From positions 1 through 41,033 of IMG/VR virus record IMGVR_UViG_3300032233_002605: DNA of 41,033 nt; one strand, given 5' to 3'. The position numbers were made by a program, and so were the translations under genes. Under the pieces are notes generated by a model. That model made no database searches, was not told where the DNA came from, and worked only from the letters and a program-made list of their open reading frames with translations. Below, piece after piece: positions 3-34,355 of this stretch. Source of the stretch: a virus. Its lineage: Duplodnaviria > Caudoviricetes. Within the stretch, counting starts at the first letter, position 1. Each line of letters begins with the position of its first letter.

Positions 3-587
3 ATTACCGTTCCAGGCCTACCAGGCACTCTTATCACGGCAGTTGGCGGTGGACTTGGACAGGGTGGATCAAATACGGCTGGTACAGCAGGTAATGCAGC
101 AAACAGAATGATATACGGAATGACATTTTCCGCTGGCGGTGGTGGTGCAGGAGGCACCAACTTGGGCGGAACTGCTTCGACCATATCTAATCCGTATTCC
201 AACGGTGGAGCAGGCGGAGGAGGAGTAGGTACAGGTGGTGCGGGCGCAGCGGGTTCTGGCGGAGGCATCACCCAACCCACAGTAAACACTACTACTGTTA
301 CTTGGCCCAATGTAACCCGAAACACGAACATACTTGCTGGCGGTTCCGCAAACACAGCAACTCCTCCACTATTTGCAAACGCAATTGCTGGCTCGATATT
401 TGGTGGAGTATTTGGTCCTGGATTCGGAGGCCCTGGCGGTGGTGGTGGTGGTTCCACTTCTGCAAACAACGGTGGTGATGGCTATCGCGGTGGCGGTGGC
501 GGAGGCGGAGGCGGGGCATTGAACGGTATAACCACTGGCTCTGGCGGTAGAGGTGGAGATGGATACGTATTGATCGTGGCCTATTGA
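3..587 (+). CDS. Glycine-rich tail fibre/virion protein, C-terminal part (5'-truncated by the window edge)
   Basis: The frame of ORF 108..587 is open back to position 3 (ITVPGLPGTLITAVGGG...). GGGGGG-rich repeats end in GGRGGDGYVLIVAY, the typical terminus of phage Gly-rich fibre domains. Confidence 0.75.
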   Translation: MTVPGLPGTLITAVGGGLGQGGSNTAGTAGNAANRMIYGMTFSAGGGGAGGTNLGGTASTISNPYSNGGAGGGGVGTGGAGAAGSGGGITQPTVNTTTVTWPNVTRNTNILAGGSANTATPPLFANAIAGSIFGGVFGPGFGGPGGGGGGSTSANNGGDGYRGGGGGGGGGALNGITTGSGGRGGDGYVLIVAY

Positions 588-15345: not shown

Positions 15346-16095
15346 ATGGATCCTGTACCAATTAAAAAACTATCTCTGGATGACATGTATGCGACTTGGG
15401 CTAAAACCCAGGATAGCAGCCAGATGCAGGCGATGTTGGATCAGCTGAATCCAGACATCGATAAGGCTGTTTATGCCTACTCAGGATTGAATGCAGGGCC
15501 GGCCGTAAAAACTAGAGCCAAGCTGCTGGCAGCTAAAGCCATAAAAAAATACACCCCTAATTCCGGCTCTTCATTGCGGAGTTGGATATATACCCAGCTG
15601 CAGCCTCTGAACAGGTACTCCCGGGAGCTGACTCCATCCCCAGTCCCAGAAAGAGCCTATCAGCAAATCAGCGCTCTCAAGAAATTTGAAGCTGATTTTT
15701 ATGAGAACAAGGGCCGAGTTCCAAGTGACGGCGAACTGTCTGACCTTACAAGTATGTCCATACGGCAGATAAACAAAGTGCGAGGAATGGACAAGCGGGT
15801 CTTTAGCGAAAGCTCCACGGCTTTTACTGGCGAGAATCCTGTGACCTCTCAGGAAATCACTGTAGCCAAGAATCCTGGCTTTCAGAAAGACGTGCTAGAC
15901 ACTATGTACAGCTCCTTTACACCGCAGGAGCAAGTCATCATGGAGCACAAGCTAGGATATAACGGCAAGAAGATTCTAAGCAATAATGACATTGCCAAGC
16001 GTCTTAGAATCAGTGCAGGCAGAGTCAGCCAACTCACCAATACAATCGCCGCAAGGCTAGATGAATACGCCCAGCTCAGCAGGAGAGGGCGATGA
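15346..16095 (+). CDS. Phage-encoded sigma-70 family RNA polymerase sigma factor (group 3, FliA/SigF-like architecture)
   Basis: Region 2-like KAIKKYTPNSGSSLRSWIY, region 3-like GRVPSDGELSDLTSMS, region 4 HTH LSNNDIAKRLRISAGRVSQL. Confidence 0.85.
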   Translation: MDPVPIKKLSLDDMYATWAKTQDSSQMQAMLDQLNPDIDKAVYAYSGLNAGPAVKTRAKLLAAKAIKKYTPNSGSSLRSWIYTQLQPLNRYSRELTPSPVPERAYQQISALKKFEADFYENKGRVPSDGELSDLTSMSIRQINKVRGMDKRVFSESSTAFTGENPVTSQEITVAKNPGFQKDVLDTMYSSFTPQEQVIMEHKLGYNGKKILSNNDIAKRLRISAGRVSQLTNTIAARLDEYAQLSRRGR

Positions 16096-27912: not shown

Positions 27913-28842
27913 ATGTACACTGCATTTAATCAAATAGCCTATCCGTTAGTCAACTTCAGCTCCGGTTCTACTGAGCAGGTTCGGGCTCTACGTTCTACTT
28001 TAGTAGACTTTAAGATATACATAGCAGGGGATAGTTTTTCTACCGTACCTAAAGTGACCTTGGTATCGCTGTATAAAGCTACAGGACAACCATTAAAGTT
28101 ACTGCTAGAACTTAAGGTAGACAGCATACTACTGGGTTCTACTATTCTTACTGTGGTTAACGACTCTTATGCTACGCAAGAGTTTGTACGCTATTACTTT
28201 GACTCAGACGACTGGCCTGTAGTATCTGGGTATAAAGTTGAAGGGTACATTTGTCTAAGCAATGCTCAAACTCTTTTTCAAACTTTTGCAGCAGAGCAGC
28301 CTATCGCTATAAATGTTGCCTTTGAGCCGAGTACAGTAGTGGCTCTAAGCAACCATAGAGTACATCAAATTACCTGCAGATCTGCCCAACCGCTTTTACA
28401 GCAGACGCCCACCGTTAGATACAATGCGGAGTCTTTGCCAGTTATGGGGGATGTTAAGTTAGTAGCAGGTAATAACTGCACTATATCTGTGCTTCCAGCT
28501 ACAAAGACAATCATTGTTGGAGCACAGCAAGGAGCTAACGACTCCGGCGATGAGCTATGCGGAGTCTGGTCTGAGAAAGTAAGTCCAAAAGACATTCTCT
28601 GCGATGAGGCAATTTACAGCATTTCTGGCGTAGATCCTGATAGCAATGGAAACATTGACATCAAAGCCGAAACCCCGTTAGTTGTAAGTTCTCTTACAGA
28701 AACAGAGTTAGCACGAGTAGCCCCTGCGTTTATCCCCATTGTAAGTCAATTTCCAGATATAATACGCTTTATCTACGTAGGTCTACCTCAGTCGGCCGGT
28801 AATGCTAGCGTGTTTAATTGTGATACTCAAGGAACGCCATGA
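27913..28842 (+). CDS. Virion structural protein, paralog family member 5
   Basis: FNQIAYPL, GDVKLVAGNN, IYSISGVDPDSNGNIDI motifs. Confidence 0.6.
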   Translation: MYTAFNQIAYPLVNFSSGSTEQVRALRSTLVDFKIYIAGDSFSTVPKVTLVSLYKATGQPLKLLLELKVDSILLGSTILTVVNDSYATQEFVRYYFDSDDWPVVSGYKVEGYICLSNAQTLFQTFAAEQPIAINVAFEPSTVVALSNHRVHQITCRSAQPLLQQTPTVRYNAESLPVMGDVKLVAGNNCTISVLPATKTIIVGAQQGANDSGDELCGVWSEKVSPKDILCDEAIYSISGVDPDSNGNIDIKAETPLVVSSLTETELARVAPAFIPIVSQFPDIIRFIYVGLPQSAGNASVFNCDTQGTP

Positions 28843-29969
28843 GTCTAGATCGATGCATTCCTATCCCGCCTGTAACCGGTCCTGGTTGCATCCTACCTAC
28901 AGGAACCGCAAACTGCAATAGTGCGCAGGTACCTACAGGTATATGTCCGCCACCCATTGATCCAGGTCCTGATGGGCCTAAATGCGTTAATGATAACGCA
29001 AGACGCCCCTGGCCAACACCTCCCCCTGCGGAAATAGGATGTAATCCTGTAAGTTTACAAGTAACAAACGAGCCTACTGAAGAAGATGATCCAGACCAAA
29101 CAATTAGGCTTGAAGGTTCAATTACATACATCTCTGGAGATGCATGTTTACCCCAGGTGAATCTTAATCTTGTAGTGCCGCCTAACATTGCATCAGGTGG
29201 AGGATCCCCAAGTCTAAGCGGATTCGGCTATACCCAGTATGGCGGCTGTGTCCGAGTAGGTCCGGTTCAAAATGCAAAATACGCCACTCCGCAAGACTTC
29301 TTTAGCAACGAACCAGGAGCTGCCTCTTTTGTAACTAAACCTATAGCGCAAATGAACCAGCTTGGAAATTGCGACGAGTTTTGCGAAGCTCGAGCTAAGT
29401 TTGGCTCTCAGGTTGCAAAATTTAATTTAATAGGGCCTATACTTGCAGAAATAACGGGATTCTATCCTACTACTTACTCTTCTTCTAATGGAGTAAGTTT
29501 TGCCACTGGATGGCGATATAGTTGGACAAGATCTATATGCGTAATTGCCTCAAGTCAGTGCATTAACGCTTTTTGCGATGTGTCGTCTTGGACAGATTAC
29601 GACGTAGGTATTGAGTATGGGGACGCTTGGAATAACAAAGAAAACGTTTATGGTTTTAGTTTTGGCGGCTTTCCCGGGTATTTAACTCCGGGTATAAATC
29701 TTCAAAAACAGGTAGAAAAAGGATTTAAACCTGTACCTGTAATGGCAGGTACTCAAGTACTTATGTATGGATTTGTTCCTTGGGGGCCAACAGCAGATGC
29801 TTGCGGCTGCCCTATAACTTGGTTCTTTAGCGAACAAGTAGCCTTTGACGGAGACTGCGAAGAAGCTACGGATACCGGTACTGCCGGAGTAACGTCTATG
29901 CTGCCTCAGAGAAACATAACTTCAGCGGGAATGTTCTTCGGATCCCCAGAAAATGCCGATCGAGTTTAA
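28839..29969 (+). CDS. Pro/Cys-rich hypothetical (likely virion) protein
   Basis: 376 aa, N-terminal CIPIPP...CPPPIDPGPDGPKC region. Coupled to neighbours. Confidence 0.65.
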   Translation: MSLDRCIPIPPVTGPGCILPTGTANCNSAQVPTGICPPPIDPGPDGPKCVNDNARRPWPTPPPAEIGCNPVSLQVTNEPTEEDDPDQTIRLEGSITYISGDACLPQVNLNLVVPPNIASGGGSPSLSGFGYTQYGGCVRVGPVQNAKYATPQDFFSNEPGAASFVTKPIAQMNQLGNCDEFCEARAKFGSQVAKFNLIGPILAEITGFYPTTYSSSNGVSFATGWRYSWTRSICVIASSQCINAFCDVSSWTDYDVGIEYGDAWNNKENVYGFSFGGFPGYLTPGINLQKQVEKGFKPVPVMAGTQVLMYGFVPWGPTADACGCPITWFFSEQVAFDGDCEEATDTGTAGVTSMLPQRNITSAGMFFGSPENADRV

Positions 29970-30640: not shown

Positions 30641-30925
30641 ATGAAGAAGTTCGCAATGACGTACGCCACGGTTCACGGCCTACTCAACAACGCAGAGGTA
30701 CGAGCAATCAGCCCTGCCATTAAGGCCGCCTACGACTCCATAGAGGCAAGCAGTGCCGGTCAGGGATGTTCTGCATGTGCTAAGAAAAAGAAAGCCAATG
30801 AGGCTATTACTCAGCTAATCTCTCAACTCCAAGGCGCATCAGAGTTAGAGTTAGATAGAATTAAAAAAGCATTAGGAGTAGAGACATTAGTGTTCTCTAA
30901 TGGCCTTAGCTTTATAGAGAGATAA
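30641..30925 (+). CDS. Small CxxC protein
   Basis: GCSACAKKKK motif, 94 aa. Confidence 0.7.
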   Translation: MKKFAMTYATVHGLLNNAEVRAISPAIKAAYDSIEASSAGQGCSACAKKKKANEAITQLISQLQGASELELDRIKKALGVETLVFSNGLSFIER

Positions 30926-31986
30926 TGGGCAGTTATAACCCAGCTATTCCTTGCTGCTGCAATAAAGGCGGCCAAAACTTATGCTGTCTTGCTGTTACGT
31001 TAGAACAATCGTGCGAAACAGCGATTATAGATGAAGAAAACTGTACGGCAGCTAGTGGGCCAGTTCAAACTCTAACGTACTTTAAACAAATTAAAACTTG
31101 CGCTAGTTCCGAAGAATGCAATTGCGAGATACTATCGACCCCAGAGAACACTGGAGGCTTTGGGCAAGAAGGTGGCGTTGGCGGATTTGGACAGCTTCCT
31201 CCTGGTACTAAGATTGTTGACTGCTCTGCTACATACTATTCAGATATAAAATGTGACTCACCGGAAGCAGCAGAGGCATGTACCGGAGGAGACACTGTAT
31301 GTATTAAATATAAATGTGGACCTTGCCAGGCGGTAAAAGACGGCTGTGTGATAGTTGGTCCTGGAACCCCTTGCCCGCCTATTCCAGATTGTCCTCCTGA
31401 TCCTTGTTGCGAACCACCTCCAACGCAGTTGTGTTGTTGTAGAGTTATAGATGACGGATGTATAGTCTCTGCAAATTGCACAACTTGCACAGAGGAAACT
31501 AGCTCAGGTACAGGTGCTAGCGGAGAAATATGCACATTTGTATCTGACTGCGAAGGGTGCAATTTAGACACAGGATTTCATATAACAACTCTATGTTGTC
31601 CTAGTTGCTACTATGTGGATACTGACGGAGACAATGTAGCTGATGTTTACCGAAATTTCTGCGTCTATTACGGCACAGACCCTCAACTAACAACCTGCTG
31701 TAACGACTGCAGGACTTATGATCCTGTTACTGGAAATCTTACCTGTGAGACACAGGCTTGTATATCTCCTTGCGGATCTGGGGTAAATCCACCCACAATG
31801 TGCCCTTGCCCTATGGCGCCTACGGGATATAATTGTTATCCCTTAACTCAAACTACATTTAGATATGGAACTATTAATAATTCTGCCGAAGGTAATTTTA
31901 TGTCGGGGATGGTATATGATCCCGTGACAAAAACGTACAAGCAGAACCGTCTATTCTTATTTGGCTACGGCTACGATAAACTATGA
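30925..31986 (+). CDS. Extremely cysteine-rich protein
   Basis: About 43 Cys in 353 aa by manual count, including CCC and CC clusters and a DTDGDNVAD Ca-binding-like loop. Confidence 0.75.
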   Translation: MGSYNPAIPCCCNKGGQNLCCLAVTLEQSCETAIIDEENCTAASGPVQTLTYFKQIKTCASSEECNCEILSTPENTGGFGQEGGVGGFGQLPPGTKIVDCSATYYSDIKCDSPEAAEACTGGDTVCIKYKCGPCQAVKDGCVIVGPGTPCPPIPDCPPDPCCEPPPTQLCCCRVIDDGCIVSANCTTCTEETSSGTGASGEICTFVSDCEGCNLDTGFHITTLCCPSCYYVDTDGDNVADVYRNFCVYYGTDPQLTTCCNDCRTYDPVTGNLTCETQACISPCGSGVNPPTMCPCPMAPTGYNCYPLTQTTFRYGTINNSAEGNFMSGMVYDPVTKTYKQNRLFLFGYGYDKL

Positions 31987-32897
31987 AAGCAGTTCACTCT
32001 TTTAGATCAGACAAGCTCCGCCCATATCTTGATATGGTTGGAGGTCCAGAGCTACTGAAGCCAGCCATTTATATTATGGCATTGTCTGCTGCAACAATAC
32101 GCAAACAGCACAAAGACTTTTTGTTTATTACCGATAAGCTGGGCAAAGAGTTAGCGGAAGCATGCAAACTGCCCTATACAGAAATTCAGTCTGTAGGGGA
32201 GGAATTTGATTCTCATCCGTGTTTTTGGGTGCATAGCAAAGTGCACGCTTATTCAAACATACACGAACCGTTTATTCACTACGACACAGATTTTTTTCTT
32301 TGGGATGCCTTACCGGCAAGTTTTTTAAATAACGACGTAGTGGCTTTTCACTCGGAAACTTTTGCTTGGGGTAAGTACGAAGAGTACAATAAAAATTTAG
32401 TTAACGCGGGATTTACCTTACCGCCATTTACGCAGACTTATTGGACTAGCCGAATGCCTATTAATATGGCGCTGTTTGGCGGCAATGACTGGAAAGCAAT
32501 AAATGAATACGGCAATACCCTGCAGCAATTTATAAAAGATAACCACGGATTTAACTACGCTACGGACGATCAAAGATTTGCTTTAGAGAAAAGCATTGCT
32601 CTGATTGAACAGCTTTGGGTTTCATACATTATTCAAGATAAGTTAAAAGTACCGATTGCTAGACTGCTTACAGAACGTAACGTCTTAGAGGGATCTGGAG
32701 ACGCAAAGGTTACGCATCTACATGGCTTTAAGCAGGAAGCAATGAAGTCTGGTAGGACTCAAGAACTCATATTTAAGCTAGAGTCTAAGTTGAATGAAGT
32801 TAACCCTGAGGTATATTCTGCGGTCCGTAAGTTCGTAACTTCCGGCGTAGATATTGATGCTATGGTTTTGGAGGCAACAAATGGTCAGAATTCCTAA
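31983..32897 (+). CDS. DxD glycosyltransferase-like protein (DUF6734-like)
   Basis: 'FWVHSKVHAYS..HEPFIHYDTDFFLW', 'N..LFGG', 'IEQ', 'HLHG..K' fit a GT-A-like pattern. Confidence 0.65.
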   Translation: MKAVHSFRSDKLRPYLDMVGGPELLKPAIYIMALSAATIRKQHKDFLFITDKLGKELAEACKLPYTEIQSVGEEFDSHPCFWVHSKVHAYSNIHEPFIHYDTDFFLWDALPASFLNNDVVAFHSETFAWGKYEEYNKNLVNAGFTLPPFTQTYWTSRMPINMALFGGNDWKAINEYGNTLQQFIKDNHGFNYATDDQRFALEKSIALIEQLWVSYIIQDKLKVPIARLLTERNVLEGSGDAKVTHLHGFKQEAMKSGRTQELIFKLESKLNEVNPEVYSAVRKFVTSGVDIDAMVLEATNGQNS

Positions 32898-33440: not shown

Positions 33441-33740
33441 ATGAATATAAAGCTGCGCAACAATACGTGGAAGCTGGTTAAGACTGACCTAGGCTCAAGC
33501 GTAAGAGGCGAGATAGACCCTCCCTCGTATGTCAACAAGAGCATTAAGCTGTCTTCCCGGTTGCGCAAACAGAGCGAGATACTAGAGGTTTTTTTACATG
33601 AGTGCCTACATGGATGCTTTTGGGATCTAGATGAAGAGGCTATTGATAAAGCCGCCTACGATATTTCCAAAGCCCTATATAAGCTTGGCGCCAGGATAGA
33701 GACAGATAAACTCAAAACAAAAAGATCTAAGCCTAAATAA
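33441..33740 (+). CDS. Small HExxH zinc metallopeptidase-like protein
   Basis: 'RGEID...IKL...EVFLHECLHG...DEEAI' mini-zincin pattern. Confidence 0.7.
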   Translation: MNIKLRNNTWKLVKTDLGSSVRGEIDPPSYVNKSIKLSSRLRKQSEILEVFLHECLHGCFWDLDEEAIDKAAYDISKALYKLGARIETDKLKTKRSKPK

Positions 33741-33754
33741 GCCAAGGACATACA

Positions 33755-33913
33755 ATGGATATTGCTTTACTGGCGTTCTTTGCCCTTACAGTCGCATTAA
33801 ATATAGCTGTGATTTTTGACATAATTTATGATATAGTAGTGGCACGATGTAAGAGAAAGTGCCCTCCTGTATCGGCAAGCATCACATTTGGCACACCTAG
33901 GAGCAGAAAGTAA
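33755..33913 (+). CDS. 52-aa single-pass membrane peptide (not in the ORF track)
   Basis: AAGGA SD (33744-48). Translates to MDIALLAFFALTVALNIAVIFDIIYDIVVARCKRKCPPVSASITFGTPRSRK. TAATG coupling to the next gene. Confidence 0.75.
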   Translation: MDIALLAFFALTVALNIAVIFDIIYDIVVARCKRKCPPVSASITFGTPRSRK

Positions 33914-34245
33914 TGGCTGTAATTAACAATATCCAAGAAGTAGATGTAACTGTATCGTTTAAACTTAGCAGCGGAGTCGATGTTGCAGCTCGCAATATTG
34001 TTTGGAGCGTTTCAGACGCAGCGCTTATTGAAGTTGCTGTAAGCGTCGACAATGCCGCCAAGGCAGTCGTAGCGTCTAAGGGTCCAGTTGGCGTAGCTAA
34101 GGTCCTTGTGGCCGCAGAGTACGCTACTGTTGACGCTGATGGCGTAGAAACCGTATTCCCAATCGGCGGTGAGGCAGAAGTAACCGTAACTGAGTCTGGC
34201 GTCGTTGTGGCAAACTTTGAATTTGGCGAGCCCAGAAACCGCTGA
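33913..34245 (+). CDS. Ig-like (Big_2-type) domain protein
   Basis: Val/Ala-rich all-beta sequence with 'IVWSVSDAALIEV...AVVASKGPVGVAKVLV', an Ig-like signature. AGGAG SD. Confidence 0.7.
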   Translation: MAVINNIQEVDVTVSFKLSSGVDVAARNIVWSVSDAALIEVAVSVDNAAKAVVASKGPVGVAKVLVAAEYATVDADGVETVFPIGGEAEVTVTESGVVVANFEFGEPRNR

Positions 34246-34257
34246 TATACTAACTAC

Positions 34258-34317
34258 TGTAGGCTTACGAGCCCGGTTTTAGGGAAGGCGTTCTTCCCAC
34301 TCACAAGTAGGTCTACA
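34258..34317 (+). ncRNA. Candidate structured RNA element (3' UTR or small RNA)
   Basis: 11-bp outer stem 34258-68/34307-17 with two G-U pairs, enclosing GAG/CTC and the hairpin GGGAAG-gcgtt-CTTCCC. Confidence 0.4.
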
Positions 34318-34322
34318 AATAG

Positions 34323-34355
34323 CAAAACCCAGGGCTTTGGCCCTGGGTTTTGTTT
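34323..34355. terminator. Bidirectional intrinsic terminator between convergent gene blocks
   Basis: 13-bp stem CAAAACCCAGGGC-TTTG-GCCCTGGGTTTTG with A-tract and T-tract flanks. Confidence 0.85.

Follow-up and report, generated by a model that had tools for sequence, protein, structure and literature searches.

Why should two adjacent phage genes, whose products are otherwise unrelated, end in nearly the same beta-strand? The question is raised by the final two genes of a plus-strand run in the window, by which we mean the whole stretch of 41,033 nucleotides analysed here, a fragment of a large tailed phage that CheckV rates as 24% complete. The genes encode a 52-aa peptide and a 110-aa Ig-like protein, and on their 5' side lie a baseplate wedge gene and a tail-fibre-like gene, recognised in Pfam and PHROGs scans. 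A first-pass annotation had described the two ORFs as coupled by TAATG and had proposed that the Ig protein polymerises through its C-terminal strand, with the peptide supplying the first strand from the membrane. The coupling is as described (Table 1). The C-terminal likeness is also real: the tails align without a gap, with seven of 13 residues identical and a BLOSUM62 score of 35. This pair ranks first among 820 tail-versus-tail pairs drawn from 41 window ORFs; when the peptide tail was shuffled 5000 times, the real score was never equalled, the best shuffle reaching 24. Neither the peptide nor the Ig protein had a match in Pfam or PHROGs.

Table 1. Features of the gene pair, with positions counted from the first nucleotide of the window.
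Feature	Position	Strand	Basis
52-aa putative starter/anchor peptide gene	33755..33913	+	ORF; kept in L002; codon pattern; AAGGA upstream at 33744-33748
Hydrophobic helix, peptide residues 5-21	33767..33817	+	KD 2.59 over 17 residues; predicted N-out/C-in
Peptide tail strand, residues 39-51	33869..33907	+	Predicted strand A donor to the first Ig; tail alignment, fused homolog model
AGGAG ribosome site of the Ig gene	33899..33903	+	Within the peptide tail codons (sequence)
110-aa predicted permuted Big_2-like Ig subunit	33913..34245	+	AF2 pLDDT 91, VIA matches, Atlas; no signal peptide
Ig tail strand, residues 98-110	34204..34242	+	Without a partner in the monomer model; predicted to become strand A in the following subunit
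Terminator-like hairpin between cassette and convergent gene	34323..34352		Fold; terminator listed on the minus strand

Both genes are kept in a related complete phage of 174.6 kb (G001, in which the locus is L002). When the last 41 codons of the peptide were compared with L002, 16 were identical, 11 differed synonymously and 14 non-synonymously, and the stretch encoding FGTPRSR contained four synonymous and no non-synonymous changes. This synonymous-biased pattern suggests that the 52-aa peptide is probably translated, a point on which the first-pass proposal had been made to depend. Loci L002 to L008 are not independent of one another, since L004 to L008 equal L002 across the 700 bases compared. 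The transcript of the cassette probably ends at the hairpin downstream of the Ig gene.

The ribosome site of the Ig gene falls in the Arg-Ser codons of FGTPRSR, so that one or two of the seven tail identities may be driven by it. Its position within the peptide tail is what could be expected if the likeness came from this overlap, or if the 3' end of the Ig gene had been duplicated locally, with no binding between the proteins and with the Ig protein acting as an ordinary virion decoration. Big_2 domains are indeed common on virions, and gpV, pb6 and the SU10 tail are among the structural matches reported below. We nevertheless regard this origin as highly unlikely, considering that changes in the motif are synonymous only, that upstream strands occur across many distinct lineages, and that the Ig protein is predicted to lack a strand A that is replaced in the model of a fused homolog.

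The first-pass annotation had recognised that its proposal would fail if the Ig monomer used its own C-terminal strand in cis. In the AF2 model of the monomer (pLDDT 91), strands are distributed across residues 2-93 and none is formed in residues 94-110, leaving the tail unpaired; the strand after residue 9 is broken. Structural matches of this model are to Big_2, S-layer and phage tail Ig domains, with Z up to 9.9. They include a Big_2-like fold with Z 9.0 to 7quz (rmsd 2.1, 75 aligned) and LigA (8gyr) with Z 8.9 (rmsd 2.3, 77 aligned). Foldseek returned nothing at E 0.001 against the PDB, and a PDB sequence search returned nothing significant. According to the AF2 model and the VIA matches, the core of the subunit comprises residues 2-93 without strand A. 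Matches to single domains begin about 8-13 residues in (LigA4 14..92, ICAM-3 11..86 and ICAM-2 11..85), which suggests that strand A has no counterpart at the Ig N-terminus. Alignments that use all 110 residues run past one domain of intimin, EA1 and InvD.

What fills this gap is indicated by P0015, a homolog in which the upstream segment and the Ig domain are naturally fused, so that the contact is modelled in cis. The best of five models (pLDDT 93) contains a hydrophobic helix at residues 2-30, a strand at 35-40, the Ig domain and a free tail at 135-155 that has no sheet partners; strand 55-63 is continuous. This model extends the same structural matches by 8-10 residues at their N-terminal end. 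Against SbsC, the start moves from 564 to 556 and Z rises from 9.8 to 12.1 (rmsd 1.9, 87 aligned), and Z to LigA (8gyr) becomes 10.2. The starts likewise move from 103 to 93 in LigA, from 11 to 1 in ICAM-3, from 218 to 210 in SU10 and from 170 to 162 in lambda gpV. The N-terminal gain points to the upstream strand as the predicted strand A, and this filling of strand A in P0015 is the strongest single result of the modelling. The 110-aa protein is accordingly modelled best, in our prediction, as a circularly permuted Big_2-type Ig domain with its first strand shifted to the C-terminus. Because of this relocation, the strand that one Ig copy lacks is likely supplied by the copy before it.

Strand complementation in some form is, in our judgement, very probable. 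We propose that the strand of the 52-aa membrane peptide would complete strand A of the first Ig copy, that the tail of this copy would become strand A of the second, and that repetition of this step would build an open head-to-tail polymer, the non-covalent equivalent of a rod of tandem Big_2 domains. The peptide would keep the chain attached to the inner membrane on its cytoplasmic side. The chain would form late in infection and require neither chaperone nor secretion, and the starter:subunit ratio would set its length. Taken as a whole, this reading of a chaperone-free, cytoplasm-facing, strand-complemented Ig chain that runs head to tail from a membrane peptide as starter appears to us rather more probable than its negation.

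The Ig protein belongs to a large family. Searching 1.84 billion representatives with a profile recovered 26 matches, and a wider profile found at least 559 family proteins (clusters at 90% identity, one search). The Atlas contained 30 look-alike clusters, of which three among the matches listed are about 105 aa long and 93-96% viral; Big_2 annotation was carried by 17% and 51% of members in look-alike clusters. None of 88 family members matched Pfam (including Big_2, PF02368; E 0.001) or PHROGs. No tblastn match was found for the window Ig and P0047 in 50,697 GenBank phage records, or for P0047 in plasmids, and six bacterial assemblies were matched in the family scan, two of them weakly. A literature search over titles and abstract starts found no description of the family, and the supplements of metagenomic phage studies could contain one. 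The size of the family, together with the lack of Pfam and PHROGs matches in those 88 members and of GenBank phage matches to those two queries, suggests unexplained biology of uncultured phages. The baseplate protein of the window had its sole match in Bacillus phage G, at 26%.

The C-terminal strand with its Gly and Pro is a feature of the family: the tail pattern is present in 96 of 141 homologs, with Gly in 89% and Pro in 85% of the respective column counts. The linker of 2-4 residues ahead of the tail often contains Gly in the alignments. An N-terminal extension is present in 38 of the 141, and the short forms, with a median net charge of -9, are acidic. The complete phage G001 carries a single Ig of the window family, which makes another copy of the same protein the likeliest acceptor of its tail.

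If the upstream strand is a functional partner of the Ig protein, it should be found beside distant relatives as well. Loci were taken from viral scans (the best 80 of 201 loci in one and 11 loci, one of them shared, in another), with L001 and L002 added. Removing identical Igs left 83, removing repeats and loci with fewer than 400 upstream bases left 77, and removing Igs more than 80% alike left 72. The upstream strand motif, in a looser form written as regular expressions after the upstream sequences had been viewed, was present at 26 of the 72 loci, versus 51 of 1761 control windows and two of 72 reverse strands. In-frame alternating strand patterns within 35 codons were found at 23 of the remaining 46 loci (controls, 315 of 2869). 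With the strict Ig-tail profile, upstream windows scored above controls overall (p 3e-6), and scores of 12 or more were reached at only five of the 72 loci and in six of the 1761 controls; many upstream strands carry G-P rather than G-x-P. Anchor and tail strands resemble each other more within a locus than in permuted pairs, the real value being reached in 37 of 20000 permutations when relatedness is left uncorrected. Among the distant relatives retrieved, the nearest is L119 (35% identity), in which a hydrophobic helix and seven basic residues are combined with a tail whose end resembles that of the window peptide.

When four loci were added and the 76 were scanned over a slightly shifted interval, the motif was present in 28, as a separate gene in 15 and in the Ig frame in 13. 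Separate and nested forms are interspersed on the tree, where well-supported branches force at least four changes. An open frame of at least 40 codons lies upstream of the Ig at 54 of the 72 loci, compared with 42 of 144 in other frames, and in 13 pairs of related upstream extensions the differences fall mainly on the third base of the codon. At 47 of the 54 open-frame loci, the Ig start has an ATG with a ribosome-site motif, versus 160 of 1094 internal Met codons. The retention of this internal start suggests that one frame yields both a short subunit and a longer starter that completes its own fold. Nested in-frame phage genes such as lambda C/Nu3, S105/S107 and T7 gp4A/4B similarly give long and short products from one frame with two starts; in the phage cassette, chains would be built of the short product and begun by the long one.

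The same parts could also close on themselves. Small Ig rings or swapped dimers, which the anchor strand would open or recruit to the membrane, would satisfy strand complementation with no long filament. The short Gly-containing linker before the tail could turn, and the many anchor segments that look coiled-coil-like by eye could fix a small stoichiometry. Tandem fusion, moreover, was not found: a tandem repeat of the permuted domain occurs in none of the 156 proteins examined, 15 of which came from a search for longer proteins. We consider such closed forms improbable, since a separate starter and a kept internal start, which would provide an excess of Ig, best fit an open chain.

At 68 loci, neighbouring genes (145 of 530 candidate ORFs) were scanned against PHROGs. 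Head, connector or tail genes adjoin the Ig gene at 18 of these loci and endolysin-like genes at five, while 13 had only DNA-metabolism or other named neighbours and the rest had none named. The 18 loci with structural neighbours lean towards late expression. They would also suit a 1:1 split protein of peptide and Ig, whose free tail hooks a host Ig-fold or virion protein and thereby forms a tether rather than a polymer; each fused form, judging by the P0015 model, is already a whole domain that leaves one tail free. For this purpose an internal start would be superfluous in fused genes, yet 47 of 54 keep one, and G001 has no second acceptor from the family, though a remote one would escape detection. 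We therefore rate the 1:1 tether as decidedly unlikely and retain the open chain. No neighbour family is common to more than three of the 72 loci. The lack of a widely shared neighbour suggests that the cassette is mobile, and with such variable neighbouring genes no function is fixed by context.

The first-pass annotation had proposed checking whether Ig homologs are consistently preceded by small transmembrane ORFs ending in a similar motif. The strand itself is often there, separate or fused, but a membrane-spanning segment is less common: strongly hydrophobic upstream segments were found in 16 of the 58 scored (7 of 58 hand-picked), one of the 16 being the strand itself, and no anchor was seen in four loci viewed by eye (L023, L029, L111 and L113). 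The remaining anchors appear by eye to be short Trp-rich amphipathic helices or coiled-coil-like segments. A membrane-spanning anchor is thus a prediction from sequence that holds for the window peptide and is not universal in the family.

Basic residues mark the cytoplasmic side of a membrane helix (the positive-inside rule). In the window peptide no K/R stands ahead of the helix and four are found in the following 15 residues, and an excess of K/R after the helix is present in 15 of the 16 hydrophobic anchors. By this rule, the strand would lie in the cytoplasm, alongside an Ig protein that has no signal peptide. The cytoplasm-facing topology put forward earlier is therefore consistent with the wider family, as N-out/C-in fits 15 of the 16, and so is the lack of a signal peptide, given that a crude test found a hydrophobic 10-residue stretch within the first 30 residues of just three of 97 short Ig forms.

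Topology also bears on whether the pair assists lysis as an accessory system of the Rz/Rz1 spanin type, bridging the envelope layers. Small overlapping or nested genes, a membrane anchor, coiled-coil-like stalks and the endolysin-like neighbours at five of 68 loci are all reminiscent of such a system. However, i-spanins are N-in/C-out, the reverse of what the basic residues after the helix indicate for 15 of the 16 anchors. An outer-membrane lipoprotein partner is not evident either: hydrophobic N-terminal stretches are as rare as stated above, any Cys is present in 21 of the 97 short forms, and the window Ig has neither Cys nor signal peptide. A spanin-like role is very unlikely on these grounds.

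Several loci depart from the arrangement in the window. At L080, L088, L094 and L096 the strand donor is a helical protein of 127-135 aa and not a membrane peptide; the tails of this donor and of the Ig at the same locus are closely similar, and a portal or head protease gene is next to it in three of the four. At L029 and L111, the stretch about 330 bases upstream of the Ig has no evident anchor ORF, and these stretches, which look similar to each other by eye, may be non-coding. L108 has a second, shorter Ig-like gene immediately behind the first, 309-623 bases past the Ig start, with the same tail type (profile score 25.6), possibly a minor subunit.

We compared the proposed chain with known strand-complemented and Ig-based structures. 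Chaperone-usher pili are secreted, need a chaperone and an usher, and use an N-terminal extension that replaces strand G. PMC7616799 describes their subunits (Fim, Pap, CupE) as incomplete Ig folds that receive a donor strand from the neighbouring subunit. The analogy with donor-strand pilins drawn in the first-pass annotation would extend to the incomplete Ig fold, which is predicted for the phage protein and whose completion is modelled in cis in the fused homolog. The geometry differs: the phage Ig lacks the N-terminal strand A and has its spare strand at the C-terminus, instead of an N-terminal strand-G donor, and it carries no Sec signal peptide. No chaperone or usher Pfam match was found among 42 window ORFs; the neighbours at other loci were scanned against PHROGs only.

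In type V pili the inserted strand is C-terminal, and the much larger subunits are made as lipoprotein precursors that a protease activates outside the cell. A released beta-strand of Porphyromonas FimA/Mfa1 fills the groove of the next subunit (PMC7616799), and separate anchor subunits exist (PMC8512630). For the phage Ig, a free C-terminal strand is predicted in both the monomer and P0015 models; the protein is a single domain of 105-110 aa with no evident lipoprotein signal and, in the window, no Cys. Pam pili of CPR bacteria, according to PMC13278184, also have a truncated Ig-like domain that takes the strand of the adjacent pilin, as well as membrane-anchored components; their pilins have two domains and Sec signal peptides, use chaperones and are chromosomally encoded. 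The phage Ig is likened to them by description, not by sequence. Big_2 and S-layer rods (LigA, intimin, invasin, SbsC) and phage decorations (lambda gpV C-domain, T5 pb6, SU10) share the fold (Z 8-12), but their domains are complete and covalently joined. The repeat unit of the phage Ig is cut one strand later, so that its joint would be non-covalent.

In the literature covered, donor-strand Ig filaments are secreted and stand on the surface of bacterial and archaeal cells, most of them with chaperones or proteases. If the open chain is real, a signal-less phage subunit of 110 residues with its own starter would bring the donor-strand principle into the cytoplasm of the infected cell, and a single permutation would convert a covalent Big_2 repeat into a polymer. 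The product would be a phage-made counterpart of the pilus that points into the cell, and the Ig/peptide pair could offer a protein fibre with its own nucleator in minimal form. As to its use by the phage, our leading guess, itself doubtful, is that it acts late, attached to the membrane, as a scaffold or tether in the assembly or release of virions, followed by the guesses of an acidic decoy or a lysis aid. The broadest version, in which a widespread mobile cassette, as one gene or a split pair that encodes both starter and subunit with a nested start that sets the length, makes an intracellular membrane-rooted Ig filament through strand complementation free of chaperones, for late scaffolding or as an acidic decoy, is put forward tentatively, with a chance somewhat short of even.

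The surroundings of the pair contain further features. A sigma-70-like promoter with an extended -10 (window 34223-34251, +) overlaps the 3' end of the Ig gene, whose final 15 codons are identical in DNA to those of L002. Beyond the promoter come a 61-nt hairpin and then a terminator (window 34223-34352, +; L002 4311-4453). The hairpin has z-scores of -3.5 in the window and -3.9 in L002, with three compensatory pairs in the two sequences. Promoter, hairpin and terminator make up a candidate small RNA of about 100 nt, which had no Rfam match at the gathering level; since one promoter was counted where 1.5 are expected by chance, the small RNA is only a lead.

A Cys-rich 376-aa ORF (28839-29969, +) has a C-terminus with the pattern A-x-M-x-F-G-x-P that is conserved in L010 (1498-2622, -) and in G001, and its tail occupies ranks 2 and 3 of the 820 tail pairs. 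We considered it as a third strand donor and set it aside as unsupported, its clade profile score being only 3.6 (rank 10 of 204). Directly 5' of the peptide gene lies a 99-aa ORF with an HExxH motif (33441-33740, +; weak phrog_1233), kept in L002, whose sequence is that of a possible zinc metalloprotease. Further upstream, 30925-32897 (+) encodes a 353-aa protein with a very high Cys content and then a DUF6734 protein, both kept in L002. Amid the baseplate-region genes, the window also contains a sigma-factor-like gene (15346-16095, +; phrog_351, E 2e-10).
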